Below, in pieces: positions 6,286-36,337 of a stretch of DNA of 64,000 nucleotides. Under the pieces are notes generated by a model, which was not told the origin of the DNA, made no database searches, and saw nothing but the letters and a program-made list of their open reading frames with translations. A program made the translations under genes and the position numbers. The stretch comes from Malacoraja senta. Lineage: Eukaryota. The number at the start of each line of letters is the position of its first letter. Within the stretch, counting starts at the first letter, position 1. Location of the stretch: NCBI GenBank assembly GCA_038087875.1, contig CM075995.1, forward strand, positions 8,248,001-8,312,000, given 5' to 3'.

Positions 6286-6308
6286 CTGCGCCATCATGTC
6301 TCACCGAC

Positions 6309-12391: not shown

Positions 12392-12579
12392 ACCGGAGCA
12401 CCCAGAGAAAACCCAGGCAGGTCACGGGGGAAACGTACAAACTCCGTACGGACAACTCCCATAGTCGGGATGGAACCCGGGTCTCTGGCGCAGTGAGGCA
12501 GCAACTCTACCGCTGCACCACCGTGCTGCCCTCCAGGTTATCGCACATTCGGCAGAAACACGGTGAATCGCCCACCTAC

Positions 12580-12955
12580 CTTCCAATACATTCCTGGCGG
12601 ATGCCAACAGCAGAGCCATGCCCATGTTTGCAGTGGCAGCATCCACCACAGAAGGAGTCTTGGCCACCTTCACCCCAAAACTGAAGATCAAAGGCAGGTC
12701 ATAGTGGTCCACACCAACGCCATTGTTCACGATCACCTTCAGGGCAGGGAGCGAGCGGAGAAGCTTCTCATCTACGATGGGATAAAACTCCCACATGAAA
12801 ATAACCTGGATTTTATTTTCAAGCTGCTCCTTGTTCTTCAGGAATTCTTCCATGGTGGCGACTTCGAAATGCTCCCTGATAACGTCTGCACATCTTCGTG
12901 GAACGCCCTGCGTCTCGCTGAGTGCGGAGACCAGAACACAGGCACGATCACTCAT
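12580..12955 (-). CDS. Glyoxylate/hydroxypyruvate reductase-like dehydrogenase, coding exon 1
   Basis: MSDRACVLVS..VDEKLLRSLPALKVIVNNGVGVDHYDL..GVKVAKTPSVVDAATANMGMALLLASARNVLEG; donor gtaggt at 12579; a polypyrimidine/AG acceptor lies 3 nt before the ATG. Confidence 0.93.
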
Positions 12956-13075
12956 CGTCTGTCGGCGCAGGGAAAAGAAAGGGTAGCTGTTTACAGTTTA
13001 GTTTATTGTCACGTGTACCGAGTTACAGTGAAATGCTTTTTGTCGCATGCTATCCAGTCAGCAGAAAAACAAAGC

Positions 13076-13320: not shown

Positions 13321-13323
13321 TTA

Positions 13324-15950: not shown

Positions 15951-16581
15951 CCTGGTTCGTTCGGCCGAAGGGTCTGTTTCCACGCTGAAAGACTCTAATA
16001 AAGTGACACCCAAACTAACTGCTGCCTTTCCAAATCTCTAGCTGCTGTTCAGACACTGAAGTAGGAGTGACCAGGGTGTTTTGGGCAGCTTACAGCCCAG
16101 TGGGATAAATATTGATCTCTCTAACTTCAGATAGCCCCGGCATTCCCTCTCTCTCTATCCCTCCCCCACCCAAGTCGCAGCAGCTTCTCGTTTTCACCCA
16201 ACAAACAGCTAACAATGGCCTGTTCCTTTATCATCGTTACTTTTTTACATATCTTTCATTCATTTGTTCTTTATCTCTCCACTGGTTATTATCCCTAATC
16301 TCGACCCAAAACGTCACCCATTTCTTCTCTCCAGAGATGCTGCCCGTCCCGCTGAGTTACTCCAGCTTTTTGTGTCTACATTAAGTGGAAACTATAGGCT
16401 GGTTAGCCTGACTTCAGTGGTTGGTAGGATTTTAGAGACCAGTATAAAGGATGAGGTTTATGAGTATTTAGAAACACACAATAAAATAGGCTGAAGTCCA
16501 ATAACAAAGTTATGTGTAGGAAGCAACTGCAGATGCTGGTTTACACCTAAGATGGACACCAATAGCTACTATTGAATGCAT

Positions 16582-16882
16582 AGTTTAGTTTAAAGAGATA
16601 CAGTGCGGAAACAGGCCCTTCAGCCCACCAAGTCGACGCCGACCAGAAATCCCCGCACATTAGCACTATCCTACACACGCACTAGGGACAATTTACAATG
16701 ACACCAAGCCAATTAACGTACAAGTGTATACGTCTTTGGAGTGTGGGAGGAAACCGAAGCACCTGGGGAAATCCCAAGCCGGTCACGGGGAGAACGTACA
16801 AACTCCATACAGACAGCAACCGTGGTCGGGATCGAACCTGGGTCTCCGGTGCTGTGAGGCAGCAACTCCACCGCTGCACCAC
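16582..16882 (-). mobile_element. HE1/V-SINE-like SINE
   Basis: Near full-length reverse-strand copy of the SINE family. Confidence 0.85.
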
Positions 16883-17307
16883 CCTAAGACGCATAGACAC
16901 TGAGCATGACGTACAAAAAGTGTTTTTGCACAATTTTCTGTTTTGTTCTGAATAAAAGCTTAAGGTGAAATAGGGAAAGATTTAATGGGAACCTGAGGGG
17001 TGACTTTTTCCACACAATAGGTGGTGGGTGTATGGAACAAGCTGCCAGAGGAGGTAGTTGAGGCAGGTGCTATCACAACGTTTAAGAAACATTTAGACAG
17101 GTACAGGTTTAGTGGGATAGGGGCGAAACGCAGGCAGGTGCGACTAGTGTAGATGGGAAATGTTGGTGGGTGTGGGCAAGTTGGGCTGAAGGGCCTGTTT
17201 CCACACTGTAAGACTCTGTGACTATTAATAAGCACACACTCAATGTGCGCTGCTGAAATGCCGTCGCTTGCACAAGTCTGCACCGATAGGTTAGGAGCGC
17301 TACTCAC

Positions 17308-17470
17308 CCCGTCGCAAACACACACTGACCTCAGCCCTCTCGGTCTCTGCACAGGGTAGTTTGTCGCAGACTCTGGCCCAACTGTGCAGAAGGGAAACTT
17401 GTGCAGTTTGGGGGGACGAGCCTCTCTGTCTTGGACGTTGCTGTCGACGCTCGGTGCAATGAAGTCTCAG
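17308..17470 (-). promoter_or_regulatory. Candidate non-coding first exon / promoter of the dehydrogenase gene
   Basis: Unique CpG-containing sequence ending in a strong donor GGG|GTGAGT at 17307; the ATG exon has an acceptor and so needs an upstream exon. The upstream boundary is a guess. Confidence 0.35.
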
Positions 17471-17721
17471 TCCCCTCCCCTTCCTTTCTCCGTTAACAGC
17501 AATCCCAGCATTTCAATGACTTCTGGAGCAAACGCACCCAGTTGCTAACCTCGCCCCGAACATATCGGGACGGCCATGCTCCTGAAACGTAAACCTGCCT
17601 TATACAAAGTCACATCAGAAACGAAACAATTGTGCCGACAAGGAGAGCAGAGCTAGAGAATTTCATGCTGGCAATAACAAAGTTATATTCAGAGATATTC
17701 AGACAAACTATTATTGATTAT

Positions 17722-18108
17722 TTTTGTGACATATTCACAAATACACACATATATATGTATCATACACACATATGTATCACATATATATATAGATACATAT
17801 ATACCATATATACATATAATGATATATATGTGTGTATATGATATATATATATATATATGTGTATTTGAGTGTATTTTTACACACACTGAACTTTGTTTCT
17901 CGTTTACTAAACTGTTTGTGACATATTCACAAATACACACATATATATGTATCATACACACATATGTATCACATATATATATATAGATACATATATACCA
18001 TATATACATATAATGATATATATGTGTGTATATGATATATATATATATATGTGTATTTGTGAGTGTATTTTTACACACACTGAACTGTTTCTCATTTACT
18101 AAACTGTT
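17722..18108. repeat. Tandem duplicate of an about 190-bp (AT)/(AC)-rich unit; third copy at 25089-25250
   Basis: GTGACATATTCACAAATACACAC...TTTACTAAACTGTTT occurs twice in tandem. Confidence 0.9.
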
Positions 18109-21100
18109 TACAGAGTACTATGTTTACATGTTCACTCTTGACTCTTAGTGATACAGTGTGGAAATAGACCATTCGGCCCAACTTGCCCACACGGGCCAAC
18201 ATGTCCCAGCTACACTAGTCCCACCTGCCTGCGTTTGGTCCATATCCCTCCAAACCTGTCCTATCCATATGTACGTGTCTCACTGTTTCTTGAATGTTGT
18301 GATAGTACCTGCCTCAAAATAAAGATAATTTTAGCAGCCACAAATTTATCTAGTTGAGTTACTGTGAGGCAGACAGAAACCGCTGCTGAGTCACGGTGAC
18401 AGCGGTCATGGTGGCGCAGCGGTAGAGTTGCTGTCTTACAATGCTGGCAGCGTCGGAGACCCGGGTCCAATCCCGACTGCGGGTGCTTGTCTGTGCGGAG
18501 TTTGTATGTTCTCCCCGTGACCCGCGTGGGTTTTCTCCGAGATCTTCGGTTTCCTCCCACACTCCAAAGACGTACATGTTTGTAGGTTAATTGGCTTGGT
18601 AAATGTAAAAATTGGTCCTAGTGGGTGTAGGATAATTCCAGTATAGTCCCTGGTGGACTCTTCGGGAGTGATGACCACAAGACAAGACAAGTCCACAGTA
18701 TCCCAGTGAAATAAAGGAATAGAGATTTCAAATTCCACAGACATGTCACTGGAGTTTAGTTTAGTTTCGTGATACAGTACGGAAACAGGACCTTTGGCCC
18801 ACCGAGTCCGCGCCGACCAGCGATCCCCGCACACTAACACTATCCTACACACACTCGGGACAATTTACAATTTTTTGACCAAAGCCAATCAGCCTACTAA
18901 CCTGTAGGTCTTTGGAGTGTGGGAGGAAACTGGAGCAACTGGAGAAAACCCACGCAGTCACAGGGGGAATGTACAAACTCTGTACAGACAGCATGCATGG
19001 TCAGGATGGAACCCGGGTCGCTGGCGCTGTGAGGCAGCAACTCTACCGCTGCGCCACCGTGCAAAGTAAAACCTTGCTAGTTGAAGAAAGTTGTGTGAGA
19101 AACTAAAGAACTGTGCCTACGGGGAAATCAGGGCTTGAGAATTTCTGGCTGGCAATAACAAAGTTATGGGTAGGAAGCAATTGCAGATGCTGGTTTACAC
19201 CGAAGATAGACACAAAATGCTGGAGTTACTCAGTGGGACAGGCAGCATCTCTGGAGAGAAGGGTCTTGACCATAAAAGTCACTCATTCCTTCTCTCCAGG
19301 GATGCTGCCTGTCCCGCTGAGTTACACCAGCATTTTGTGTCTATCTTTTATGGTGTTCAGTACTGTGTTTACAGAGCTGTTATACTTCTGCAAGAAAGGA
19401 TTTCATTGTTCTGTGTCCACACATATTAAACACTGAAGATTGACAAAAAAATGCTGGAGTAACTCAGCGGGACAGGCAAAATTTCTGGAGGGAAAGAATG
19501 GGTGACTTTTCCAGTCGATATTCTTCTTTAGACTGAGAGTCAGGGGAGAGGGAGACACAGAGATATGGAAGTGTTTCAGAGAGAACTGCAGATGCTGGAA
19601 AAATATGATATGAAAGGTGAGGTGTGAAAACGAGAGATCAAAGGGGATGGTGTTTAAGGAAAATCATTCACACACTCTCTTTTTCACACAGAGAATTGTG
19701 AGTGTGGAATTCTCTGCCTCAGAGGGCAGTGCAGGCAGGTTCTCTGGACACTTTCAAGAGAGAGCTAGATAGGGCTCTTAAAGATAGTGGAGTGAAGGGA
19801 TATGGGGAGAAGGCAGGAACGGGGTAATGATTGTGGATGATCAGCCATGATCACATTGAATGGCGGTGCTGGCTCAAAGGGCCGAATGGCCTAGGCCTGC
19901 ACCTATTGTCTATTGTCTATCATTGTTATTTGGGGGAAGGTGACAACGAAGCATACAAAGTCAAAGTCAGGAGGACTGTCAGACTGGTCGGAGAACAAGG
20001 ATGGGGGAGGGATGGAGTTGCAATGCAAGGGTTACTTGTAGTCATTCATACCACTGGGGTGTAAGCTGCCCAAGTGAAATACGAGGTGCTGTTCCTCCAA
20101 TTTGCGTTGGGCCTCACTCTGACATTCTTTGGTGTAAACCAGCATCTGCAGTTCCTTCCTACATAATTCAGCCATATTGATGTTTTCAACTAATTACCCC
20201 GATATTTACAAAAATACAGATTTAATTGAATGTATCACGTTGTGTAATCAAATATATTGAAATTTAAAATGCAAAGTAAGGTGCCTCTGACTAAAAGGAA
20301 TGCAAATATGACCCACTGATTACAAATATAACTCTACAAGGGAGAAAACATTGAGACATTGTGTCTGGAATTTAGAGTAGTAATCAATACCAATGTTAAT
20401 CCCTAAAATTAGAAAGTCTGAAGAATGTCGCCCATTCCTTCTCTCCAGAGATGCTGCCTGTCTCGCTGAGTTACTCTGGCATTTTGTGTCTATCTTCGTT
20501 TTAAACCAGTGTCAGCAGTTCCTTCCTACACATTTCGTCAACTCCTGAAACTTCTTTTGCATGTTGCCAAAAGTTCAGTTTAAATGGTTTATGAAACGTC
20601 TAATAATTAGGGCGGCACGGTGGTGCAGCGGCAGAGTTGCTGCCTTGCAGCGCTGGACACCCGGGTTTGATCGTGACCACGGGTGCTGTCTGTACGGAGT
20701 TTGTACGTTCTCCCTGTGACCTGCTGGGGTTTTTTTCGGTTGCTCCAGTTTCTTCCCACACTGCAAAGACGTAGGTTAATTGGCTTTGGGAAAATTGTAA
20801 AATAGTCCTTAGTGTGTGCAGGATAGTGCTAGTGTCCAGAGATCGCTGGCTGGCTCGGGGTCAGTGGGCCAAAGTGCCTGTTTCTGTGCTGTTTCTCTAA
20901 ACTAAACTAATGCAGAAATCAGAGCAAGAGGCTGGGCTCCAGAAACAGACACATGCACAGTGTTGTTCTGTGTTATGTAGAGGGAGACACAGGGATATGG
21001 AAGGGTAAAGTGTGAAAGGTCAATGAAACACTCGTGACTCTGGGATAATGGTGCCTAATTACTACAGGATGACCCCCCCCCCTCCCCCTTAAATACAGGC

Positions 21101-21170
21101 TGATCCATGGGTTTGTGTGATGGGAGATCATGTCTCACGAATTTGATTGAGTTTTTGAAGAAGTAACTAA

Positions 21171-22001
21171 GTCCGCCTAGTCTGGTTGTCTTTTTATCTT
21201 TTTTATTTTTAGTCTGTTTAAAGTATGGTTTTTTTTGTATTTTATGTGGGGGAGGAGGGGAGGGTAATAGGGAATCCGTCCTTCAGTCACTTCCTGGCGA
21301 GGATGCGACTATTATCCGAGGCGCGCCTTCGCCCACCTCCTCGCGGCCTACCTACTGGATTGGCGCGGCCTTTCCTGCTGGGGCTAGACCATAGCTTCAG
21401 CAGCAGCGGCGCAGCGCTGGATATATCCCGGAGCGGGCGATGCCTTACCTGGGATCGCCGTTTGAAGTTCCGGAGTGTTGAGCCTGCTGCATCAACATCG
21501 CAGAGCTGTGGTTTGCGGAGTTCCCAGCGCGGGCGGTGCTGACCAACATCGCAGAGTCCTGGAACCCTTTGCCGGGGGCCGCCAGAGTTGAATCTCCGCC
21601 AGCTCTGCCTGTGGACTTCGGGAGCCGCAGACTCCGGTGGGAGGTGGCCGATTCAGAGGTCCAGGCCGCTGAGGGCATTCTTCCGTTCGACGTCGGAGTT
21701 CCATCGTTCCCGGCGAGAGGGCCTGAACACCGGGCCGCCCGTAACGGCGACTGCGGGAGGCTCGGGAGGCCACGACCATGGGTGAACATCGGGGAACATC
21801 AGCGAGGAGGTTGACTGGACTTTCGTTCCTTCCCTCACAATGGGGAACTTTGGTGCCGCTGTTGGGATGTTTGTGTTGTGGACTATTGTTTTGTTCTGTG
21901 TTTTAGTCTTTACATTTTTTAAATTCTTTTGACTGTATGGGAAATAGCATTTCGTTGTCTCTTACTTGAAGACAATGACAATAAATTGAATCAAATCAAA
22001 T
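21171..22001 (+). mobile_element. GC-rich non-autonomous retroelement with Rex/Babar-like 3' end
   Basis: Ends ATTTCGTTGTC..GACAATGACAATAAA plus (TCAAA)n; the empty site is visible in the inverted copy at about 24430. Confidence 0.75.
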
Positions 22002-22447
22002 CAAGAAGGTTGACAAGGGTAAGACCATCTTCTTCTTAGGCCCCCCGGTGTATGGGCCATGGGTGTCTCCAGGGTTGGAGGACGCCAGTCCGTGACTTTG
22101 TTTAACGTGGGGAGACTGGTGCACAGACAGCCACCACACGGTCCTTGACAGATCTGGGTCAGGATTTAGTGGTATGGAGTCCAACACGACTGGAGAACCG
22201 TTTCTGCTGCAGCCTTCATCCGCCTTCCCAGCTGTTGTGACGCTCCACTAAGGTCAGCCATCGTCGTCCGCCTGTTCCACCGTTGAGGTCTTGGTTGGAT
22301 TGCTCTTTGTCAGAGACCTCCCCCTCGAAACATTGTCTATTTCCTTCGCTCCATAGATGCTGCCTCATCCGCTGAGTTTCTCCAGCATTTTTGTCTATCC
22401 ATATGTACGTGTCTCACAGTTTCTTGAATGTTGTGATAGTACCTGCC

Positions 22448-22491
22448 CTGGGGCAGATCGACTATTAAACTAATGAAGCTTAAGCTTCAGG
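22448..22491 (+). mobile_element. hAT-like element end A (second copy at 28725-28770)
   Basis: TACCTGCC then CTGGGGCAGATC(G/T)AC..AAGCTTAAGCTTCAGG; the other end with the same 8-mer is at 34072-34120. Confidence 0.65.
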
Positions 22492-22594
22492 AAACCTAAT
22501 CCCAGAAGCGACTTTAGTCCAGATATTCTTCGGATTTAAATCGGAATTCCGATTTTGTTTGTTTTCCTAGAAATGAATCTGATTTTTCACCTGG

Positions 22595-23100
22595 ACTAAA
22601 CCCCTCGCCTCTTGTCTCGAATAAACTTCACCTCACACTTAAACCTCAACTCACTAAACCTTGTCTCGACTAAACCTCCCACCTCACACCTAATCCCCGC
22701 CTCGACTAATGGCCGCCTCCCTCCCTCCCTCCCTCCCTCCCGCTCGCTCCCACGGGGAGGGGCTGCAGCCGCCACGGGCGGGACTCGGTCTCGACGTCAA
22801 CGTCTGCGCGCGTGCGCCCCTCCCACCCCCACCGCCTCTCTCGGGCAGTGCGCCTGCGCCGCTCTCCGCGCTCGGCCCCGCCCCCCCTGGTTGGAGCCGT
22901 TGGTTCCGCTGAGCGCGAGCGGGAGAGAGGCGGCGATTATTCGAGGCGCGGATTAGGTGTCAGGTGTCGTCGTGAGGTGTCGTAGAGGTGAGGGGATTAG
23001 TCGAGGTGTAAGTGTGTAGGTGAGGGGATTAGTCGAGGTGTAAGTGTGTACGTGAGGGGATTAGTCGAGGTGTAAGTGTAGGTGAGGGGAAGTGAGTGTA
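22595..23100. promoter_or_regulatory. CpG-rich promoter-like module flanked by inverted repeats, copy 1
   Basis: GACGTCA, GCGCGTGCGC/GCGCCTGCGC, GCCCCGCCC and CCGTTG motifs; inverted arms about 22680-22726 and 22921-22966; 32-bp minisatellite at 22988-23090. Confidence 0.5.
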
Positions 23101-23949
23101 GGTGAGGTGAGGAGAAGTGGGTGTCTGAGCTCAGGAAGGGAGACCAAGGTGCTGCTGAAGGAGATGAGACCACTGCCTTCTGTGGCAGAGAATTCCACAC
23201 ATTCACAACTCTGGGTGAAAACGTTTTTTCTCATCTCAGTGCTAGGTAAAGAGACATTTCGGGTAACATTTTTTGTAAAGATTTTTTTAGCTGTATGAGG
23301 CCATTTATTGAAACATATAAGATTATTAAGGGTTTGAACACGCTAGAGGCGGGAAACTCGTTTCCAATGTTGGGGGAGTCCAGAACCAGGGGCCACAGTT
23401 TAAGAATAAGGGGGAGGCCATTTAACGGAGATGAGGAAATACTTTTTCACACAGAGAGTTGTGAACCTGTGGAATTCTCTGCCTCAGGGCAGTGGAAGCC
23501 AATTCTACACAGGTTCAGTTTCAACTTTCTTTAAAGCACAGAATTATGTATGACACAAGAAGAGGACTTTACACATGTTTAAGCACTCCACCTGTCCCTA
23601 TCCCCTGCTGTCTTCTTGCAGCTTTGCGATGTATTTCTGACACAATGGTCCATTCTACATTTGCTTAGCAACATCTGTTTTGATCTCTCGTTTTCACACC
23701 TTATCCTTCCATATCTCTGTCTCCCTTTCTCCTGACTCTCAGTCTGAAGAAAGGTCTCTACTGGAAAGGTCACGCATTCCTTCTCTCAAGAGACGCTGCC
23801 TGTCCCGTTGGGTTACTCCGGCATTTTGTGTCTGTCTTCGGCATAAACCAGCATCTGCAGTTGTTTCCTACACACTGTATCGAACTAGCTCGCTCTTCTT
23901 GGACGCCATGCAATCTGACCTTCCGGAGCAGCTTACTATGTTGAATGTT

Positions 23950-24405
23950 ATGGAAGGCCGTCCTGAAGTCCGTATGGACAATGCATATGGTCTCCGTGGA
24001 TTGTCACCTTGTCGTGGTGGAGAAGCTTGTCTCCTGAGATCCTGAGAGCGATGCCGCTTGGAGCTATGCTCCTGGTAGGGCCACCCATGGCAGTAAGGTC
24101 GAGGGGGAGGACTCTGAAAAAGAGCAATCCAACCAAGACCTCAACGGTGGAACAGGCAGAGGACGATGGCTGACCTTAGTGGAGAGTCACAACGGCTGGG
24201 AAGGCGGATGAAGGCTGCAGCAGAAAAGGGTCCCCGGTCGTCTTGGACTCCATGCCACTGGATCCTGACCCGGATCTGTCAAGGACCGTGTGGTGGCTGT
24301 TTGTGTACCAGTCTCCCCACGTTAAACAAAGTCACGTACTGGTGTCCTCAAACCCTGGAGACACCCATGGTCAGCCCTGACCGAGGGGGGCCTAAAAAGA
24401 AGATG
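23950..24405 (+). mobile_element. RTE (Expander/Rex3-like) non-autonomous element; partial inverted copies at 22025-22325 and 28300-28602
   Basis: CACCTTGTCGTGGTGGAG..GCTCCTGGTAGGG.CACCCATGGC resembles RTE 5' UTRs; (AAG)n tail. Confidence 0.55.
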
Positions 24406-25073
24406 GTCTTACCCTTGTCAACCTTCTTGGTTACTTCCTCAAAAACTCAATCAAATTCGTGAGACATGATCTCCCATCACACAAACCCATGGATCAGCCT
24501 CTATCTAAGGGGGGAGAATTCTTCCTGTAGTAATCAGACACCATTGTCCCAGAGTCAAGAGTGTTTCATTGACCCTTCACACTTTACCCTTCCATATCCC
24601 TGCGTCTCACTCTGTACATAACACAGAGCATGAGCAGATAACTGTGCATATGCCTGTTTTCGGAGCCCAGCCTCTTGCTACGATTTCTGCATTAGTTCAG
24701 TTTAGTTTAGTTTAGAGAAACAGCGCGGAAACAGGCACTTCCGCCCACTCAGCCCGCGCCGGCGAGCGATCACTGCACACGAACGCTATCCTGCACACAC
24801 TAGGGACTATTTTACAATTTTACCAAAGCCAATTAACCTACGTCTTTGGAGTGTGGGAGGAAACTGGAGCAACCGGAGAAACCCCACGCAGGTCACGGGG
24901 AGAACGTACAAGCTCCGTACAGATCGAACCCGGGTCTCCGGCGCTGCAAGGCAGCAACTCTGCCGCTGCACCACCATGCCGCCCTAATTATTAGACATGT
25001 TCCATAAAGAATTTAAACTGAACTTTCGCCAAAGTGCAAAAGAAGTTACAGGAGTTGACAAAATGTGTAGGAA
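24100..25073 (-). repeat. Inverted copy of the duplicated segment, left part
   Basis: Reverse complement of 20520-21170 joined directly to 22002-22325. Confidence 0.9.
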
Positions 25074-25088
25074 ACATAGAAACATAGA

Positions 25089-28000
25089 GAGATATTCACA
25101 AATACACACATATATATGTATCATACACACATATGTATCATATACCAGATATATATACATATAATGATATATATGTGTGTATATGATATATATATATGTG
25201 TATTTGTGAGTATTTTTACACAAACAACTTTTTTTCTCGTTTACTAAACTTTACAGAGTACTATGTTTACATGTTCACTCTTGACTCTTGAGTGATACAG
25301 TGTGGAAACAGGCCCTTCGGCCCAACTTGCCCACACGGGCCAACATGTCCCAGCTACACTAGTCCCACTTGCCTGCGTTTGCTCCATATCCCTCCAAACC
25401 TGTCCTATCCATATGTACGTGTCTCACTGTTTCTTGAATGTTGTGATAGTACCTGCCTCAAAATAAAGATAATTTTAGCAGCCACAAATTGATCTAGTTG
25501 AGTTAACTATAGCGTTACTGTGAGGCAGTCAGGAACCGCTGCTGAGTCACGGTGACAACGGTCACGGTGGCGCAGCGGTAGAGTTGCTGCCTTATAGCGC
25601 TGGCAGCGTCGGAGACGGGTTCGATCCCGACTACGGGTGCTGTCTACGGAGTTCGTACGTTCTCCCCGTGACCCGCGTGTGTTTTCTCCGAGATCTTCGG
25701 TTTCCTCCCACACGCCAAAGACGTACAGGTTTATAGGTTAATTGGCTTGGTAAATGTAAACATTGGCCCTAGTGGGTGTAGGATTATTCCAGTATAGTCC
25801 CTGGTGGACTCTTGATGACCACAAGACAAGACAAGTCCACAGTGTCCCAGTGAAATAAAGGGATAGAGATTTCAAATTCCACAGACATGTCACTAGAGTT
25901 TAGTTTAGTTTCGTGATACAGTACGGAAACAGGACCTTTGGCCCACCGAGTCCGCGCCGACCAGCGATCCCCGCACACTAACACTATCCTACACACACGA
26001 GGGACAATTACATTTTTTTTTACCAAAGCCAATTAGCCTACTAACCTGTACGTCTTCCAAGTGTGGGAGGAAACTGGTGCACCCTGAGAAAACCCATGCG
26101 GTCACAGGGAGAATGTACAAACTCTGTACAGACAGCATGCATGGTCAGGATTGAACCCGGGTTTCTGGCTCTGTGAAAGTAGGGCTTGAGAATTTCATGC
26201 TGGCAATAACAAAGTTATGGGTCGGAAGCAACTGCAGATGCTGGTTTACACCGAAGATAGACACAAAATGCTGGAGTAACTCAGTGGGACAGGCAGCATC
26301 TCTGGAGAGAAGGGTCTCGACCAAAAAAAGTCACTCATTCCTTCACTCCAGGGATGCTGCCTGTCCCGCTGAGTTACTCCAGCATTTTGTTTCTATCTTT
26401 TATTGTGTTCAGTACTGCTTTATCAGACCTGTTACACTGCTGCAAGAAAGGATTTCATTGTTCTGTGTACACACATATTAAACACTGAAGATTGACAAAA
26501 AAAATGCTGGAGGAAAGAAAGAACTGCAGATGCTGGAAAAATATGGAAGGTGAGGTGTGAAAACGAGAGATCAAAGGGGATGATGTTTAAGGAAAATCAT
26601 TCACACACTCTCTTTTTCACACAGAGAGTTGTGAGTTTGTGGAATTCTCTGCCCCAGAGGGCAGTGGAGGCCGGTTCGCTGGATACTTTCAAGAGAGAGC
26701 TAGATAGGGCTCTTAAAGATAGCGGAGTGAAGAGATATAGGGAGAAGGCAGGAACGGGGTACTAATTGTGGATGATCAGCCATGATCACATTGAATGGCG
26801 GTGCTGGCTCGAAGGGCCAAATGGCCGAGGCCTGCACCTATTGTCTATTGTCTATCATTGTTATTTGGGGGAAGGTGACAACGAAGCATACAAAGTCAAA
26901 TTTAGTCAGGAGGACTGTCAGACTGGTCGGAGAACGAGGATGCATGGTGGGATGGAGTTGCAATGCTCAGTCGGCCAAAGTCCCTGATTCTGCGCTGTTT
27001 CTCTAAACTAAACTAATGCAGAAATCAGAGCAAGAGGCCGGACTCCAGAAACAGACACATGCACCATATTGTTCTGTGTTATGTACAGAGGGAGACACAG
27101 TGTATTGAAGGGTAAAGTGTGAAAGGTCAATGAAACACTCTTGATTCTTGATTCTTGACTCTGGAACAATGGTGCCTGATTACTACAGGAAGGTTTCCCC
27201 CCGATACGGGCTGGTCCATGGATTTGTGTGATGGGAGATCATGTCTCACGAATTTGATTGAGTTTTTGAAGAAGTAACCAAGTCTGCCTACAGTCTGTTT
27301 GTCTTTTTTATTTTAGTCTGTTTAAAGTATGTTTTTTTTCCTTTCTATTTTATGTGGGGGAGGGGGTAGGGTAAGGGGGAAACCATCCTTTAGTCACTTC
27401 CTGGCGAGGATGCAACTATTATTCGAGTCGCGCCCTCGCCCCCCTCCTTGCGGCTTACCTACTGGATTGGACCAGAGCATCAGCAGCGGCAGCGCAGCGC
27501 TGGATACTCTCTTTTTCACTTTTGTGAGTTTGTGGAATTCTCTGCCCCAGAGGGCAGTGGAGGCCGGTTCGCTGGATACTTTCAAGAGAGAGCTAGATAG
27601 GGCTCTTAAAGATAGCGGAGTGAAGAGATATAGGGAGAAGGCAGGAACGGGGTACTAATTGTGGATGATCAGCCATGATCACATTGAATGGCGGTGCTGG
27701 CTCGAAGGGCCAAATGGCCTAGTGTCTCACTTGGGATCGCCGTTTGAAGCTCCGGAGTGTTGAGCCTGCTGCATCAACATCGCGGAGCTGTGTTTTGCAG
27801 AGCTCCCAGCACGGGCGGTGCTGACCAACATTGCGGAGTCCTGGGACTCTTTGCCGGGGGCCGCCAGCGTTGAATCTCCGCCAGCTCGGCCTGTGGACTT
27901 CGGGAGCCGCAGACTCCGGAGGGAGGTGGCCGATTCAGAGGTCCAGGCCACTGAGGACGTTCTTCTGTTCGACGTCGGGGTTCCATCGTTCCCGGCGAGA

Positions 28001-29260
28001 GGGCCTGAACATCGGGCCGCCCATAGTGGCGACTGCGGGGGCCTCGGGAGGCCACGACCACGGGTGAACATCGGGGAACATCAGCAAGGAAGTTGACTGG
28101 ACATTCGTTCCTTCCCTCACAGTGGGGAACTTTGGTGCTGCTGTGGGGATGTTTGTGTTGTGGACTATTGTTCTGTGTTTTCGTTTTTTAAATTTTTTTA
28201 TTCGTATGACTGTATGGGAAATAGCAATTTGTTGCCTCTTACTTGAAGACAATGACAATAAATTGAATCAAATCAAATCTAGAAGGTTGACAAGGGTAAG
28301 ACCATCTTCTTCTTAGGCCCCCCTTGGTCATGGCCATGGGTGTCTACAGGGTTGGAGGACGCCAGTCCGTGACTTTGTTTAACGTGGGGAGACTGGTGCA
28401 CAGACAGCCACCCCACGGTCCTTGACAGATCTGGGTCAGGATCCAGTGGTATGGAGTCCAAGACGACCGGAGAACCGTTTCTGCTGCAGCCTTCATCCGC
28501 CTTCCCAGCCGTTGTGACGCTCCACTAAGGTCAGCCATCGTCCTCCGCCTGTTCCACCGTTGAGGTCTTGGTTGGATTGCTCTTTGTCAGAGACCTCCCC
28601 CTCGAAACATTGTCTATTTCCTTCGCTCCATAGATGCTGCCTCACCCGCTGAGTTTCTCCAGCATTTTTGTCTATCCATATGTACGTGTCTCACAGTTTC
28701 TTGAATGTTGTGATAGTACCTGCCCTGGGGCAGATCTACTATGAAACTAATGAAGCTTAAGCTTCAGGGAACCAAATCCCAGAAGCAACTTTAGTCCAGA
28801 TATTCTTCCGATTTAAATCGGAATTCCGATTTTGTTTGTTTTCCTAGGAATCTGATTTTTCACCTGGACTCAACCCCTCGCCTCTTGTCTCAACTAAACT
28901 TCACCTCACACTTAAACCTCAATTCACTAAACCTTGTCTCGACTAAACCTCCCACCTCACACCTAATCCCCGCCTCGATTAATGGCCGCCTCCCTCCCGC
29001 TCGCGCTCCCGCGGGGAGGGGCTGCAGCCGCCACAAGCGGGGTGGGCGGGGCTCGGGCTCGACGTCAACGTCACTGCGCGCATGCGCCCCCCGCAACCGA
29101 CTCTCTCGGGCAGTGCACCTGCGCCGCGCTCGGCCCCGCCCCCCTGGTTGGAGCCGTTGGTTCCGCTGAGCGCGAGCGGGAGAGAGGCGGCGATTAGTCG
29201 AGGCACGGATTAGGTGTCAGGTGTCGTCGTGAGGTATCGTAGAGGTGAGGGGATTATTCG
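25089..29260 (+). repeat. Segmental duplication, copy 2 (with internal deletions)
   Basis: Direct copy of 17920-22998, including the GC-rich element (27282-28278), hAT end A and the CpG module. Confidence 0.92.
28865..29260. promoter_or_regulatory. CpG-rich promoter-like module, copy 2
   Basis: GACGTCAACGTCA, GCGCATGCGC (NRF1-type), GC box; inverted arms 28952-29008 and 29168-29223. Confidence 0.5.
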
Positions 29261-29261
29261 A

Positions 29262-31384
29262 AATCCATATTTGAAATCCACATGTTTATAGTTGGTATTG
29301 GAGCGTTTTTCCAGAATTTTAGGATTAACTTTTTTCCAGTTATTAACCCATATTCATTTCTTTTGGAACACATTTAGTTCTGGACTATCTTCCGTTGTTC
29401 CAAAGAAAATCCATTCTGCTTTGGGTATCAGTTTTATTTTAAATAATATTGTAAAGATTTCAAAAATTTCAATCCAAAATTTTTGAATTTTTGTACAGAA
29501 AACAAATGAGTGCGCTATAGTAGCTTCTTGAGATTGACATTTATCACAAATGGATGATACATTTGGGAACATTTTATTAATTTTTGTTTTGGAATAATAT
29601 AATCTATGTAAAATTTTAAATTGTATTAAAGTGTGTCTTACATTAATCGAACATTTATGCACGTTTAATAAATGTTCATTCCACCTTTCCTTTGAGATTT
29701 TAATAGCTAATTCTTGTTCCCAGTCTCTTCTAATACCTTCCGTAGATGGTATTTCTACATTTAAGATAATATTATACAAATATGATATTATGTTTGCTGA
29801 TTCAGCTTTTATCTGCATTGCTTCATCCAATACATCTGCTGGGCTATTATAATGATGTTTTGTATATTTTTTCAAATAGTCACATATTTGAAAATATTTA
29901 AAATATTGATTATTTCCCAGTTTATATTTTATTTGTAATTGTTGGAATGATAGTAATTTTCCAGTTTCATACAAGTCACCGAACATTTTAATTCATAGTC
30001 TATCCCATTGTATAAAAGATTTGTCTGTAATAGAGGGATTAAACGAAGGGTTATTAACTATTGGAGATAAAAGCGATAGATTTCTTAATTTTAAATTTTG
30101 TTTTATTTGTTTCCAAATTCTGATTGTACTATGTATAATTGGGTTTTTGTTATAATTTATGTTATTCAGTTTCATTGGTGAGAGGAGGATCACTCCAATG
30201 TTTCCAGAGGAGCAGTCCTCTCTCTCCATTACAATCCAGTCCACTTGCTGGGCAGAGTTGTCCATCAGTTGAATCATATTTTTAATATTTACTGACCAAT
30301 AATAATACATGAAGTTAGGGAGTGCTAAGCCCCCTAATACTTTAGCTTTGTTCAAGTGTGTTCTTTGTATTCTATGTGATTTATAGTCCCATATCAAATT
30401 AGTAATGTCTGAATCCAGTTTAAAAAAAAACTTCTTTGGTAGGTATATAGGAATCGATTGAAATAGGTATAAAATTTGTGGTAAGAAGATCATTTTTATT
30501 GCATTTATTCGGCCTATTAAAGACATCGGGAGGGTTTTCCAAAATTTAATTCGTGTATTTAATTTATTAAGTAAAGGATCAAAATTTGCTTTAAACATGC
30601 CTTGATATGTTCTAGTGATTTCAATACCCAAGTATTTAAATTTTTCTGCAGCTATTTTAAAAGGGAATTTTAAAAGATGTGTTGAGTCTTTCGGTTTTAT
30701 TGACATAATTTCACTTTTATTCCAATTTATTCTGTATCCAGAAAAAGATCCAAAGTCCTCAATTAAATTTAATATATTTGGTATAGTAATTTGAGGTTTT
30801 GTAATGTATAATAATATATCATCCGCGTATAAAGATATTTTATTATTTGAATATTTAGTATTATACCCATGGATATGTGGATGTGTTCTAATTTTTTCTG
30901 CTAACGGTTCAATTATGAGAGCAAACAACTGTGGTGATAATGAGCATCCTTGTCTATTTCCCCTTGATAGTTGAAATTTCGAGGATAATATGTTATTAGT
31001 TAATATTCTAGCTGTAGGTTTATTATATAATAGTTTAATCCATAAAATAAAATTCTCTCCCAGTTGGAATTTTTGTAATACTTTATCCATATAATTCCAT
31101 TCTACTTGGTCAAATGCTTTTTCAGCGTCCAGTGAAATAATTGATAATTCTTGTTCTTCAAATTTATGTGAGTGCATTATATTGAGTAGACGTCTCATAT
31201 TATTAGATTAATATCTCTTAGGGATAAACCCCATCTGATCTGGGTTTATTAGTTTACTAATATATTTACTTAATCTTCTAGCTAATGTTTTCGCTAATAT
31301 TTTTTGATCTGTATTTAACAATGCTATAGCTCTATATGAACCCGGTTCTTCTAAAGCTTTGTCTTTTTTAAGTATTAGTGTGAT
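29262..31384 (-). mobile_element. L1-clade LINE fragment (RT and C-terminal region), truncated at both ends
   Basis: SLDAEKAFD, RQGCSLSP, LYADD, CDKC..HSFVFC; frameshifted; paralogous to 59575-63366. Confidence 0.95.
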
Positions 31385-34079
31385 CATAAAGAATTTAAAC
31401 TGAACTTTTGCCAAAGTGCAAAAGAAGTTACAGGAGTTGACAAAATGTGTAGGAAGGAACTGCAGACGCTGGATTAAAATGAAGGTAGACACAAAATGCT
31501 GGAGTAACTCAGCGGGACAGGCAGCATCTCTGGAGAGAAGGAATGGGTGATGTTTCGGGTCGAGACCCTTCTTCAGACTTTCTAATTTTAGAGGTTAACA
31601 TTGATATTGATTATTACTCAAAATTCCAGACACAATGTCTCAATGTTTTCTCCCTTGTAGAGTTTTATTTGCAATCAGTGGGTCCTATTTGCATTCCTTT
31701 TAGTCAGAGACACCTTCCTTTGCATTTTAAATTTCAATATATTTGGTTACACAACTTGATACATTCAATTAAATCTGTATTTTTTTATAAATATCGAGGT
31801 AATTAGTTGAAAACACCAATATGGCTGAATTATGTAGGAAGGAACTGCAGATGCTGGTTTACACCAAAGAATGTCAGTGAGGCCCAACGCAAATTGGAGG
31901 ATCAGCACCTCATATTTCTCTTTGAGCAGCTTACACCCTAGCAGTATGAATGACTTCAAGTAACCCTTGCATTGCAAATCCATCCCTCCCCCATCCTTGT
32001 TCTCTGACCAGTCTGACAGTCCTCCTGACTAAATTTGACTTTGTATGCTTCGTTGTCACCTTCCCCCAGATAACAATGATAGACAATAGATAATAGACAA
32101 TACGTGCAGGCCCATGCCATTCGGCCCTTTGGGCCAGCATCGCCCTCTGAGGCAGAGAATTCCACAGACTCACAACTCTGTGTAAAATAGAGAGTGTGTG
32201 AATGATTTTCCTTAAATATCGTCCCCTTTGATCTCTCGTTTTCACACCTCACCTTCCATATCATATGTTTCCAGCATCTGCAGTTCTTTCTGAAACACTT
32301 CCATATCTCTGTCTCCCTCTCCCCTGTCTCAGTCTGAAGAAGGGTCTCGACTGGAAAAGTCACCCATTCCTTCTCTCCAGAAATGCTGCCTGTCCCGCTG
32401 AGTTACTCCAGCATTTTTTTGTCAAACTTCAGTGTTTAATATGTGTGGACACAGAACAATAAAATCCTTTCTTGCAGCAGAATAACAGGTCTGTAAACGC
32501 AGTACTGAACACAATAAAAGATAGACACAAAATGCTGGTGTAACTCAGCGGGACAGGCAGCATCCCTGGAGAGAAGGAATGAGTAACTTTTATGGTCAAG
32601 ACCCTTCTCTCCAGAGATGCTGCCTGTCCCACTGAGTTACTGCAGCATTTTGTGTCTATCTTCGGTGTAAACCAGCATCTGCAGTTGCTTCCTACACATA
32701 ACTTTGTTATTGCCAGCCTGAAATTCTCAAACCCTGATTTCCCTGTAGGCACAGTTGTTTAGTTTCTCACATAACTTTCTTCAATATGGCAAGGTTTTAC
32801 TTTGCACGGTGGCGCAGCGGTAGAGATGTTGCCTCACAGCGCCAGAGACCCTGCTTCCATCCTGACCATGCGTGCTGTCTGTACAGAGTTTGTACGTTCT
32901 CCCTGTGAGCTGCGAGAGTTTCTTCGGGTGCTCTGGTTTCCTCCCGCACTCCAAAGACGTACAGGTTAGTAGGTTAATTGGCTTCGGTAAAAAAGTGTAA
33001 ATTGTCCCTAGTGTGTGTGGGATAGTGTTAGTGTGCGGGGATCGCTGGTCGGCGCGGACTGGGTGGGCCTAAGGGCCTGTTTCCGTACTGTATCTCGAAA
33101 CTAAACTAAAGTAATATAAACTCCAGTGACATGTCTGTGGAATTTGAATTCTCTATCCCTTTATTTCTCTGGGATACTGTGGACTCAGCACCGGTTTCTG
33201 TCTGCCTCACTGTAATCCAACAGTCAACAATTAACTCAACAAGATAATAGACAATAGGTGCAGGAGTAGGCCATTTGGCCCTTCGAGCCAGCACCGCCAT
33301 TCAACGTGATCATGGCTGATCATCCCCAATCTACCCCGTTCCTGCCTTCGCCCCATATCCCTGACTACGCTATTTTAAAGAGCCCTATCTAGCTCTCTCT
33401 TGAAAGCATCCAGAGAACCTGCCTCCACCACCCTCTGAGGCAGAGAATTCCACAGACTCACCATTCTCTGTGAGAAAAAGTGGTTTCCTCGTCTCCTTCC
33501 AAAATGGCTTACCCCTTATTCTTAAACTGTGGCCCCTGGTTCTGGACTCCCCCAACATCAGGAACATGTTTCCTGCCTCTAGCGTGTCCAAACCCTTAAC
33601 AATCTTACATGTCTCAATGAGATCTCCTCTCATCCTTCTAAACTCCAGAGTGTACAAGCCCACTGCTCCATTCTCTCAGCATATGACAGTCCCGCCATCC
33701 CGGGAATTAACCTTGTAAACCTAAGCTGCTCTCCCTCAATACCAAGAATGTCCTTCCTCAAATTAGGGGACCCAAAACTGCACACAATACTCCAGGTGTG
33801 GTCTCACTCGGGCTCTGTACAATTGCAGAAGGACCTCTTTGCTCCTATATTTGATTCCTCTTGTTGTAAAGGCCAACATGCCATTTGCTTTCCTCACTGC
33901 CTGCTGTACCTGCATGCTTACTTTCATAGACTGATGTACAAGGACCCCCAGATCCCGTTGTACTTCCCCTTTGCCCAACTTCACGCCATTTAGATAGTAA
34001 TCTTGCCTTCCTGTTTTTGCTACCAAAGTGGAAAGAAAATTTGTGGCTGCTAAAATTATTTTTAATCTTGAGGCAGGTA
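31385..34079 (-). repeat. Inverted copy of the duplicated segment, right part (interrupted by CR1 at 33245-34030)
   Basis: Reverse complement of 18306-20592, lacking the SINE at about 18393-18692. Confidence 0.9.
33245..34030 (-). mobile_element. CR1 3' fragment
   Basis: QRDLGVLVH..RPHLEYCVQFW..EFRRMRGDLIE. Confidence 0.9.
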
Positions 34080-34513
34080 CAGTGGTGGACCTACATTTTT
34101 GGGGCCCTGAAGCTTGAACTGTTATGGGGCCCTTCGCAACCAGCACCGAGGTCCTGGGTAACCACTGTTATCTTCTGCAATGGGGTTGTTCCACGACAGA
34201 TCACCACAAAATTTTAATTTCTGTCATAAATGTTAATAGTGTTTTAAATTATTTATAATTATTTTTATATTAAATATATTTAGAATGAAACATCCTTAAT
34301 TTGAATATTTTTTTGTTTACGGCTACTTTAATAACCTTTTAATTTTTATCTGAACTATTATTTTGTATTGACTATCATACAGTAGTCCCAACATTTTTAA
34401 GCAATGTGGACTAAGCATTGAAAAAAAGTAGGAAGTATTGGCCGGGGGTCCAGGAGGCTGACTAGGCCCTCGGCAGGGTCCAGGGGCAGCGCCCCCGGTG
34501 GGGGTTCAGGGGA
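34080..34513. mobile_element. hAT-like element end B
   Basis: GGCAGGTA (reverse complement TACCTGCC) then CAGTGGTGGACCTAC..GGGGCCCTGAAGCTT. The inner boundary is approximate. Confidence 0.65.
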
Positions 34514-36337
34514 AATGCCTGCCACAGTCGGTTCGTATTGGTGGAAATGTGTCAGACTCGATAACAATCAGCATGGGAGCACCTCAAGGCTGCGTGCTCA
34601 GCCCCCTGCTGTACTCACTCTATACTCATGACTGCGTAGCCGGTCATAGTGCGAACTCCATCATCAAGTTCGCTGACGACACCACTGTTGTGGGATGTAT
34701 CACTGATGGGGATGAGTCAGAGTATAGAAGAGAGATCGAGCAACTGTCCATATGGTGCCAGCACAATAACCTAGCCCTCAACACCAGCAAAACCAAGGAA
34801 CTGATTGTGACTTGGAAGGAGTAGGATGGGGACCCACAGTCCCATTTATATCAACGATCGATGGTTGAAAGAGTCAAGAGCTTCAAATTCCTGGGCGTGC
34901 ACATCTCTGAAGATCTTTCCTGGTCCGAAAACACTGATGCAATTATTAAGAAAGCACATCAGCGCCTCTACTTCCTGAGAAGATTACGGGAGAGTCGGTT
35001 TGTCAAGGAGGACTCTCTCTAACTTCTACAGGTGCACAGTAGAGACATGCTGACTGGTTGCATCGTGGCTTGGTTCGGCAACTTGAACACCCTGGAGAGG
35101 AAAAGACTACAAAAAGTGGTAAACACTGCCCAGTCCATCATCGGCTCTGACCTCCCTTCCATCGAGGGGATCTATCGCTTTCACTGCCTCAAAAAGGCTG
35201 GCAGTATCATCAAGGACGCACACCATCCTGGCCACCCACTCATCTCCCTGCTACCTTCAGGTAGAATGACAGGAGCCTGAAGACTGCAACGACCAGGTTC
35301 AGGAATAGCTGCTTCCCCACATCTATCAGGCTAATTAAACTTGGCTCGGACATAACTCTGAACATTAATAGCCCATTTTACTTCGGAGTCACGTGAGTGA
35401 CTACGTGAAGAAGGGCCGTCAGCCCGCATGCGCGTCATTACGTCTACCGAATTGCGCTACGACTGGCTGGCGGCGCGTCGCTCCACCAGCGGTAAGTTTC
35501 AATTCCTACAGGTAAGTTTTCAAACTTACTTTTCAGTTTGTCCTTTTGTTGCAGGAATCTCTCTTCGCAGAGTTTTCCTGTTGGATATAGTAATACGCAG
35601 CAAAACCCGGACGGACCGCGTGGAAACCTATTATGGACTGCGGGATGCCGGCTACGGACCGTGGAAGTGCGGGGTAGCGGGTGGCTATCGGGTTTGCTGC
35701 CTGAGTCGCTGACAGTGCGGTCAGCGACTCCCAAGGGCTTTTTAAATTCGGGCGATATCCGGACGGGCCGCGGGGATATTACAGTCCGCGGGAATGCCGG
35801 GCACAGACCGCGGGAGAGCGGGTAGCCGGTGGCCGTCGGGTTCGCTACCCGAGTCGCTGACAGTGCGGTCAGTGACTCCGACTTCGGCAGCCCAAAAGGT
35901 AGGCAACCATACGGAGTCGGAGAGGCCTGGGCTGGAGCCCAGCCAGGAGGGTTCCCCTCCGACTACAAGGGTACGTCCACGGATGTTTAACACATCCTGA
36001 TATGGTGGACCATATCAGCGCAGGTCCACGGGGGCCTATGGCAGCGCCTGTGCACAGGGCTGCTCACTAATCTCCCTCTCTGTGGAGAGGAGTACGAAAG
36101 GTCAATGTGTGACTGTCTCCTACCCCGGAAGTATGTCCATGGCACATACTGCAATTCATCAGAGTTCCCCTCACGTTACAAGATAAACACCCTATGCCTC
36201 CAATGGCAGTAGCAGGAATAGTGTATTCTTTTAAAAGTATGGCTATACAGGGTGGGCACCATTATGCTGGTATCCTCTGACTAATTTATCAGATCAGGAG
36301 TTTGTTCTTGGTATCATAATGTTCTTGGTATCATAAT

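Follow-up and report, generated by a model that had tools for sequence, protein, structure and literature searches.

Organization of the locus

The window, by which we mean the whole stretch analyzed (64,000 nucleotides of Malacoraja senta contig CM075995.1, positions 8,248,001 to 8,312,000 of assembly GCA_038087875.1), carries on its minus strand a 2-ketogluconate reductase-like (2-hydroxyacid dehydrogenase) gene whose product is 90% identical to a thorny skate protein. To its right lies a mirror-symmetric, CpG-rich module that is present twice (copy A, 22585-23130; copy B, 28860-29261), with 95.6% identity over 385 aligned columns. The features are as follows.

10426-10247 and 8872-8663, minus strand: further exons of the 2-ketogluconate reductase-like gene
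12578..12958 (coding 12955-12578), minus strand: first coding exon of this gene, with an acceptor before the ATG
17224..17590, minus strand: candidate non-coding first exon; unique in the window, GC 0.55, CpG o/e 0.78, donor GGG/GTGAGT at 17307
17920..23004, plus strand: duplicated segment with its second copy at 25089-29261; pieces 84-93% identical; created the second module copy
18306..18313, plus strand: empty (pre-insertion) site 1; downstream sequence matches the outer flank of hAT end B over ~35 bp
22440..22447, plus strand: target-site duplication TACCTGCC of copy A, before hAT end A
22448..22584, plus strand: hAT end A of copy A; imperfect 15-bp terminal inverted repeat, 9/15 to end B
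22474-22489 and 22538-22555: subterminal short palindromes in end A of copy A
22585..22679, minus strand: left degenerate repeat tract of copy A; ~70% related to the right minisatellite, with a different unit
22680..22725, minus strand: left inverted arm of copy A; 41/46 to the right arm
22716-22741: (CCTC)n expansion in copy A
22726..22920: CpG-rich core of copy A; GACGTCA at 22793, NRF1-like words at 22808 and 22850, GC boxes
22902, minus strand: CAACGG in the core of copy A
22921..22966, plus strand: right inverted arm of copy A
22986..23112, plus strand: 32-bp minisatellite, 3.3-4.3 copies, with several donor-like GT words
23113..23240, plus strand: repeat-family continuation; some contigs of relatives bridge to the repeat fragment 23170-23240 (X6 record 32, X1 record 3)
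25450..25457, plus strand: empty site 2, paralogous to site 1
28717..28859, plus strand: target duplication (28717-28724) and hAT end A of copy B; 10/15 to end B
28860..29261: module copy B, with left tract, left arm 28953-29008, core 29009-29167 and right arm 29168-29223, cut at 29261
29262..31385, minus strand: internal L1/Tx1-type ORF2 fragment, truncated at both ends, replacing the right side of copy B
34072..34560, plus strand: inverted target duplication (34072-34079) and hAT end B (34080) with ~480 bp of interior, inverted relative to end A

The inverted arms of copy A (22680-22725/22921-22966) are identical at 41 of 46 positions and those of copy B (28953-29008/29168-29223) at 50 of 56; their local scores of 88 and 82 compare with maxima of 38 and 29 in 500 dinucleotide shuffles each, and DNA folding of copy B gave z=-9.5. 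The cores measure 195 bp in copy A and 159 bp in copy B, with a GC content of 0.76-0.77 and a CpG o/e of 0.96-0.98. GC is about 0.70 for the module, and over 311 bp it is 0.71 with a CpG o/e of 1.0. The left arm of copy A (22680..22725) contains a word that we take to be YY1-like, and the repeat fragment at 23170-23240 is presumably CR1-like. The sequence-only reading of this DNA had the arms continuing outward as the same minisatellite in both directions. This was overstated: the exact 25-mer unit occurs three times only, always on the right-hand side of copy A, the closest sequence on the left differs at 5 positions in A and at 6 in B, and the outward homology amounts to 70.7% over 157 bp. 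Copy B is interrupted at 29261, ahead of its right array.

Motif content and CpG retention

GACGTCA, which is CRE-like, is found in both cores (P 0.01-0.016, 2000 shuffles), as are NRF1-like GCGCNTGCGC words (P<=0.001 for the observed count), and all four motifs occurred together in none of the 2000 shuffles made per core; because the motifs were chosen after inspection, these P values err on the optimistic side. The exact GCGCATGCGC, in contrast, is confined to copy B (at 29078), and both the GC box (probability of at least one, about 0.5) and CAACGG (one per core, P 0.09-0.14) are at chance level. The description of a duplicated, mirror-symmetric, promoter-like module was borne out by the arms, the CpG o/e of about 1.0, and the CRE-like and NRF1-like words. 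With its CpG-island composition and NRF1-, SP1- and YY1-type words (the GC box at chance), the module resembles bidirectional CpG-island promoters. There is, however, no head-to-head gene pair within about 1 kb, and no coding exon was found to the right among the 149 of 203 ORFs scanned.

The claim that CpGs are kept in both copies came out as borderline. Between the copies, 5 of 43 CpGs had decayed in the module; the corresponding counts were 12 of 40 for the GC-rich repeat next to it (p=0.056) and 37 of 146 for the duplication's other segments (p=0.063). The same CpG o/e is reached by other repeat pieces in the window (0.93, 1.11). The module is also slightly better conserved, with 17 differences between A and B in 385 positions versus 47 in 595 in the flanking GC-rich repeat (p=0.034). 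This conservation, together with about half the CpG decay of the flank (p about 0.06), would fit low methylation or function.

We rejected a coding role for the module: there was no Pfam match in its ORFs, and the 71-aa ATG-started ORF of copy B (28982-29197), the one frame searched, had 0 matches among 1.84 billion representatives. Exact pattern scans returned 0 loci in metagenomes, viral contigs and prokaryote genomes. Rfam gave nothing at gathering over the window and one chance match near the module (E 4.5), and the sole tRNA call (18993) is inside a SINE.

hAT ends around the module and the origin of copy B

Both module copies are set ~140 bp inward from a hAT end that has an 8-bp target duplication, in agreement with the earlier placement of the module just inside hAT end A. 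TACCTGCC stands at 22440, 28717 and 34072 and occurs singly at the empty sites 18306 and 25450; these end and empty sites make up 5 of its 6 occurrences in the window. It precedes end A in both copies and also flanks end B. Terminal inverted repeats of 10-25 bp and 8-bp target-site duplications are what defines hAT elements (PMC3942097). The 8-bp duplication is present here and the 15-bp terminal repeats, although imperfect, are within that range, but the two ends do not enclose an interior in inward orientation, since end B is inverted together with its flank. We infer that a later inversion caused this arrangement and that the present copy is a broken member. As the ends are out of transposon orientation, the intact element is a reconstruction, and it is only in this reconstructed state, before the inversion, that transposon sequence flanks the cargo on either side. 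For Ac/Ds-type alternative transposition as the cause of the inversion, no new target duplication was identified at a breakpoint. The ends may resemble those of Tip100-type elements; setting the hAT subgroup requires a transposase. Among the 149 of 203 ORFs scanned to the right of 13 kb, which include all those listed over modules A and B, no transposase or gene domain was found; the exceptions were remnants of Tc1, reverse-transcriptase and GIY-YIG type and a single weak DUF hit.

A MITE in the strict sense has a short, AT-rich interior (PMC3942097); here, the known interior exceeds 1.2 kb and the module GC is about 0.70. The high copy number of MITEs is matched, at roughly tens to hundreds in relatives, with depth as a rough guide only. 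In a foldback element, the repeat-built arms would be the element ends at the target duplication, whereas the arm homology of this module has its limits at 22585/23075, 137 bp inward of the target duplication, with unrelated outer flanks.

The upstream flank is common to copies A and B over 1.1 kb, as is the target site, and the alignments show that a local segmental duplication, not a second jump, produced copy B. The L1/Tx1-type fragment at 29262..31385 aligns to 59677-61801, within an ORF at 59575-63390. A clean L1 insertion or 3' transduction was rejected as the source of copy B, because the 3' end and the tail are missing from the L1 piece and the flanking repeat measures ~72 bp; an assembly artifact was rejected because the copies differ by 4-9%.

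Copy number in public runs of relatives

The module was followed in two public runs, X4 and X6, which come from two studies and carry two organism labels (run kind not on record, taken as DNA). The numbers of distinct contigs with the same non-window letter (X4/X6) were 41/36 at 22532, 32/25 at 22593, 21/27 at 22662, 17/3 at 22789, 35/21 at 22835 and 21/28 at 23097. One or two diploid loci are expected to give only a few such contigs; the module sequence is multi-copy in two related organisms. Relative to the 8 listed long pieces per run, the summed depth had a median of 206x (12-1044x) in X4 and 66x (2-391x) in X6, over 19 of 21 element bins with 2 masked bins left out, a rough measure in that depth is not copy number. 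The SINE flank reached about 600,000x. The sequence-only reading had itself named, as the case that would refute it, a module that is simply the interior of a high-copy element. The 3 to 41 distinct contigs per position, with a summed depth that usually exceeds that of single contigs by a factor of tens to hundreds, indicate just such a repeat-family interior. Its favored proposal, a locus-specific lncRNA or piRNA-cluster-like promoter, was not supported, given the multiple copies in two relatives, the local duplication, and a gene within 10 kb.

Contigs of the relatives contain internal skips and one strand-switch joint at 22790/22917 (among the joints listed, 15 of 49), which suggest that deletion variants and the mirror exist in other copies, although joints at 85% likeness can be repeat artifacts. 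SINE flanks dominated the listings of loose ends and pieces (906 and 82,698 rows beyond those listed), and among the rows listed no distinct target sites of other copies were seen. Depth troughs did not track the private changes of copy A (rho -0.03), and the uneven depth profile possibly reflects GC dropout or subfamilies. No RNA run is listed for 22560-23140. In runs X1 and X2, which contributed small shares and are only guessed to be RNA (X2 "probably DNA"), core cover was low or missing and no GT..AG appeared among the joints listed, which is evidence neither way.

A probable hAT family interior and its alternatives

We consider it probable that the module represents promoter-like internal sequence of a non-autonomous hAT DNA transposon family that occurs in skates in tens to a few hundred copies. 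The earlier idea of promoter cargo in a hAT element fits the target duplication, the two ends, the two empty sites and the promoter-like motifs. An old head-to-head duplication of a promoter, a short first exon and the start of an intron would have created the mirror, with a TATA-less CpG core at its center; this may have happened in a host locus before its capture or in the element's own promoter. The mirror would be older than the spread, as its arms are 11% and its outer tracts 30% diverged. The unit between the hAT ends would then have inserted with an 8-bp target duplication, a step shown in part, with transposase presumably supplied in trans. Local segmental duplication next yielded copy B, whose right side an L1 fragment then replaced, two steps that the window displays. 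Finally, an inversion may have turned end B and its flank, so that this copy could no longer move as a unit. The core probably began as a working bidirectional promoter; at this locus, it is most likely carried along as a passenger, and any divergent transcription into repeats would be weak at most.

Alternatively, the module may belong to a multi-copy family of host genes or lncRNAs (e.g., head-to-head paralogues), as their promoter and first exon, or be another repeat, joined to hAT end A at this locus only, by capture or by the rearrangement that inverted end B. We regard this as unlikely. Support comes from the left boundary: X6 record 25 (520 nt, at single-copy depth) is matched at 22501-22690 only, X4 record 17 begins at 22501, the remainder of such contigs is unmatched, and the depth rises four- to six-fold at 22522, so that some copies may have other left flanks. 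In addition, none of the contigs listed joined the terminal repeat (22448-22490) to the module in a relative, the arms resemble paired first exons, the old repeat fragment at 23170-23240 is included as in an intron, and NRF1, SP1 and YY1 motifs are enriched in human bidirectional promoters (PMC10887517). However, the terminal repeat is only about 50-75 bp from 22501 and 22522. The two end-A bins are level (89/97x in X4, 62/65x in X6), and in X6 they equal the baseline at the start of the left tract (66x), as expected if end A and the left tract are linked. Furthermore, at 12 positions the letters of the relatives share a single majority type, from which copy A departs by about 2%, a pattern that a burst would leave, and no host gene of such a family was found in the window among the 149 of 203 ORFs scanned.

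The neighboring gene raises another alternative. Contrary to the earlier statement that there is no adjacent gene, the coding start of the 2-ketogluconate reductase-like gene is 9.6 kb to the left of the module, and an upstream exon is expected, since an acceptor precedes the first coding exon at 12958. Copy A, regardless of its origin, could have been co-opted as an (alternative) promoter, its left arm starting a minus-strand RNA spliced to that exon. The gene sits on the strand that the left arm would drive, a donor-like CAG/GTGAAA (7/9) is present at 22590, and the CpG retention is borderline. Nonetheless, we consider co-option quite improbable: donor-like words are common, with four others at 8/9 on the minus strand in 12960-29300, and the module is a young insertion, whereas the gene is also found in sharks. 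Moreover, the nearer, unique, CpG-enriched stretch at 17224..17590, with its GTGAGT donor at 17307, is a simpler candidate, and we infer that it would be the first exon of this gene.

A bidirectional germ-line promoter that drives a lncRNA or piRNA-cluster-like locus built from inverted repeats and repeat debris is very improbable. In its favor, the surroundings are repeat-rich with kilobase inverted duplications, CAACGG is present, and among mouse pachytene clusters some have a central bidirectional A-MYB promoter and 18 of 100 have high-CG promoters (PMC7782496). Against it, repeats are no less abundant in the remainder of the window, CAACGG occurs no more often than expected by chance, and the module sequence is that of a dispersed repeat. 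In the same source, 82 of 100 mouse pachytene cluster promoters have a CpG o/e of <0.5, typically with long first exons (a low or intermediate CG content being typical of the class, not absolute), against a module o/e of about 1.0 and donor-like sites <100 bp from the arms.

Comparison with known systems

Under the hAT family reading, the lesson is an ordinary one: what looks like a conspicuous orphan CpG promoter in this cartilaginous fish would be internal sequence of a DNA transposon with many copies, which a local duplication has doubled. Like the non-autonomous hATs and hAT-derived MITEs of the BuT2 type (PMC3942097), the element has an 8-bp target duplication, short imperfect terminal repeats, no coding capacity, multiple copies and internal-deletion variants. 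It is longer than a typical MITE, with at least ~790 bp beside end A and ~480 bp beside end B, and differs from hAT MITEs in its GC-rich interior with a second inverted-arm pair of its own and in being broken by inversion.

The module shares with bidirectional CpG-island promoters (PMC10887517) the absence of a TATA box, an o/e of about 1, NRF1-, SP1- and YY1-like words and about 160-195 bp between the halves; unlike those promoters, it has mutually homologous halves, many copies, no gene pair within 1 kb, and putative start sites. A possible divergent layout and a MYB-type word are common to it and to the promoters of pachytene piRNA clusters, a class described in mammals (PMC7782496), whereas the skate module is high-CG, repeat-borne, and probably endowed with short first exons.

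Pack-hAT-N8_XT, with 291 bp of the CAPSL 5' UTR (PMC8277862), likewise contains host-like 5' regulatory sequence in a hAT element, spread by transposition. Only four multicopy Pack-TIRs, each with a few copies, emerged from the reference genomes in a survey of 100 animal genomes (PMC8277862); these have a known parental locus and 3-5 copies, whereas the skate module has a far higher apparent copy number and mirror-symmetric cargo, and no parental copy turned up in the collections scanned. We entertain, as a speculative extension, that a skate-specific Pack-hAT family took up a mirror-symmetric CpG-island promoter of head-to-head layout and carried it to tens or hundreds of sites, where the copies would resist methylation via NRF1/CRE-type sites and fire both ways with the same 5' leader, a portable promoter seeding lncRNAs and alternative first exons, possibly that of the 2-ketogluconate reductase-like gene. 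If true, a Pack-hAT family of this kind, at high copy number and with its symmetric promoter active, would offer a natural experiment on CpG-island promoter spread and escape from silencing.

A variable-length minisatellite within a non-autonomous DNA element is also a property of Xmix/Xstir, miDNA4 and the Tetris foldback elements (PMC9659126). In those elements, the repeats build the long terminal repeats, whereas in the skate module they lie outside the internal arms and the short hAT termini are separate.

Mirror-symmetric structure of the module

The module, a CpG-rich promoter-like unit with a core between inverted arms and repeat tracts beyond, is present at 22585–23130 (copy A) and 28860–29261 (copy B). 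As the sequence-only reading had proposed, it is duplicated and mirror-symmetric: the arms agree at 41/46 positions in copy A and 50/56 in copy B, and their alignment scores of 88 and 82 far exceed the maxima of 38 and 29 in 500 shuffles. The same minisatellite had been claimed on both sides; arm homology in copy A does extend outward (70.7% over 157 bp), but the exact 25-mer unit (n = 3) occurs only to the right of copy A. Copy B ends at 29261, cut by an L1/Tx1-type ORF2 piece lacking either end. Among the promoter motifs described, GACGTCA and NRF1-like words exceeded dinucleotide shuffles and were found in none of seven other CpG-rich stretches within the window, whereas the GC box and CAACGG stayed at chance level in such shuffles; the transcription-factor names are presumptive on our part. 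Between copies A and B, 5/43 CpGs have decayed in the module, compared to 37/146 across the rest of the duplicated segment (P = 0.063) and 12/40 in the adjoining GC-rich repeat (P = 0.056), so that preferential CpG retention, also claimed earlier, is suggestive only.

A second CpG-rich palindrome, unrelated to the module, lies at 43127–43470 (80.6% self-complementary over about 340 bp) and is probably a palindromic MITE-like element. Mirror-symmetric GC-rich repeats are not unique to the module in this window. At 23590–23622 (+), in a window-unique stretch about 630 bp right of copy A, a strong acceptor-like pyrimidine tract with CAG may either belong to the cargo's second exon or have arisen by chance.

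hAT frame and local duplication

The module starts 137 bp inside hAT end A, confirming its reported placement, and an 8-bp target duplication adjoins that end. TACCTGCC immediately precedes end A in both copies (22440 and 28717) and, in inverted form, abuts the outer side of end B (34072). Only one occurrence is present at each of 18306 and 25450, where it is followed by the sequence that adjoins end B externally. Ends A and B share 9 to 10 of their first 15 bases. An 8-bp duplication with 10- to 25-bp terminal repeats is the hAT signature in the accessible text of PMC3942097. Of the 203 ORFs with at least 70 aa at 13–59.5 kb, 149 were scanned and none held a transposase domain, the others being mostly duplicates or obvious retroelement frames.

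The segment 17920–23004 is duplicated at 25089–29261; within this duplication, 21441–23004 aligns to 27723–29261 with 91.4% identity. Since both modules have the upstream flank and target site in common, copy B is a segmental duplicate rather than an independent insertion. A third copy of the flank, inverted and fragmented, extends from about 24100 to 34070. Across 1,614 three-way columns, private changes numbered 38 in the first, 56 in the second, and 81 in the inverted copy, which, given an even rate, therefore split first. Within the inverted copy, a pair of direct repeats encloses the second copy together with the L1 piece:

25002–25073 and 31385–31455: about 72 bp each, enclosing a block of 6.3 kb

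Template switching possibly produced this arrangement. In the simplest order, a roughly 4-kb unit would have been duplicated in tandem, the hAT would have inserted into one tandem copy, an inversion would have flipped end B and its flank, and a later duplication would have yielded copy B.

Copy number in relatives

Words of copy A were found in nine public sequencing runs from four studies. Four runs were aligned to 22250–23250 at 85% likeness, of which X4 and X6 (two organism labels, two studies) were read as DNA. In both, many distinct contigs overlap at single positions across the element, sharing a letter that differs from that of the window.

Distinct contigs with a non-window letter (position: X4/X6)
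22532: 41/36
22557: 23/24
22593: 32/25
22621: 20/11
22662: 21/27
22789: 17/3
22805: 23/6
22835: 35/21
23097: 21/28
23146: 22/28

For 19 bins of the element, two masked ones being set aside, summed depth had a median of 206-fold (12 to 1,044) in X4 and 66-fold (2 to 391) in X6, relative to the median depth of the eight long pieces listed; as depth is not copy number, only the order of magnitude, tens to hundreds, was taken. The element is therefore multi-copy in relatives and the module is not locus-specific, an outcome that the sequence-only reading had itself set against its proposal. At 12 positions, one alternative letter carries 73 to 100% of depth in both runs. Copy B, but not copy A, holds the majority letter at three of these, and both copies depart from it at 22557, 22593, 22662, 22664, and 22835. 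This pattern would fit a family dominated by a single type, the present locus having diverged from that type before it was duplicated. Internal skips and one strand switch (22790/22917) were seen among the 15 of 49 joints listed, where artifacts are possible at 85% likeness. The core is far shallower in X6 than in X4.

Origin of the module

The module is a real feature and is mostly explained: mirror arms, promoter-type motifs, a hAT target duplication with ends, local duplication, and multiple copies in relatives were all observed. On balance, we favor a promoter-like passenger in a multi-copy hAT family. Divergence is 11% between arms, 30% between outer tracts, and about 4% between copies A and B, which suggests that the mirror is old and would have arisen when a promoter with its first exon was duplicated head to head; the family would then have spread through transposase supplied in trans, leaving the module as a passenger. 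A less probable alternative is a multi-copy host unit joined to a hAT end only here. Consistent with it, X6 record 25 (520 nt) matches only at 22501–22690, depth rises abruptly at 22522, and none of the pieces listed connects the module with the terminal repeat; across the family, end A and the module are likely linked. That a high-copy Pack-hAT family spreads active symmetric promoters is a bolder and rather improbable extension of the passenger reading.

Neighboring gene

Contrary to the earlier claim, a gene lies nearby. An ORF at 12.4–13.0 kb matches Pfam 2-Hacid_dh, its best relative being the Amblyraja radiata "probable 2-ketogluconate reductase" (90% identity), which points to a skate as the most likely source, and tblastn placed three exons.

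12955–12578 (−): reductase-like coding exon
10426–10247 (−): reductase-like coding exon
8872–8663 (−): reductase-like coding exon
17224–17590 (−): candidate non-coding first exon (GC 0.55, o/e 0.78; donor GGG/GTGAGT at 17307)

A pyrimidine tract and AG precede the ATG, so a further exon is expected upstream, towards the module. At 13–22 kb, only 17224–17590 is window-unique, >300 bp, and CpG-enriched, and this stretch, rather than the module, is probably the first exon. A donor-like site at 22590, on the module's left side (7/9 match), would suit local co-option of copy A as an alternative start, which is compatible with a hAT passenger; given the candidate exon with its donor at 17307, we consider it unlikely.

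Next to this candidate lies 17591–17686, whose paralogues (about 80%) at 19098, 26175, and 32698 hint at an older duplication. Frames and splice sites of the gene are intact. Exon 12578–12955 (−) carries N99K and D110N, where homologues have N in 14/14 and D/E in 14/14, possibly reflecting relaxed selection or a duplicate gene copy. A degraded duplicate of exon 8872–8663, with a stop codon, lies at 6307–6459 (−), and the last exons (aa 253–326) are absent from the window.

Comparison with known systems and other repeats

The module would work like a multicopy Pack-TIR, although membership in that class requires a parental locus. The accessible text of PMC8277862 reports only four multicopy cases, and a frog hAT with 291 bp of 5′ UTR as cargo, present at three sites. 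The element differs from a strict MITE in length and GC (criteria in the available part of PMC3942097) and from a foldback element in its ends. Human bidirectional promoters are alike in motif content, but the module has no gene pair (PMC10887517, as far as accessible). A piRNA-cluster-like promoter is highly improbable, with CAACGG at chance level and the module unlike most mouse pachytene piRNA promoters, 82/100 of which have o/e <0.5 in the available text of PMC7782496. Repeats carried within MITEs are already known (PMC9659126, accessible part); the accessible portions of PMC7168160, PMC11979771, and PMC8903248 hold nothing specific to this element. Our literature search listed no paper on the element, which may already be catalogued in a repeat library such as Repbase or Dfam.

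The window is repeat-rich vertebrate DNA, including the following:

86–528: minisatellite, 48-bp unit, 9.2 copies
35377–40320: element that we take to be DIRS-like from its anatomy, with its ends inverted and a complementary stretch inside
36710–37013: minisatellite, 42-bp unit, 7.3 copies
43766–44319 and 53132–53665: LTR-like pair in direct orientation, 93% identical; the interior is degraded and holds further insertions
51078–52236: Penelope-like, GIY-YIG ORF (51300–51851) between 422-bp inverted repeats, 98% identical
59575–63390 (−): uninterrupted L1/Tx1-type ORF2 frame, 1,271 aa
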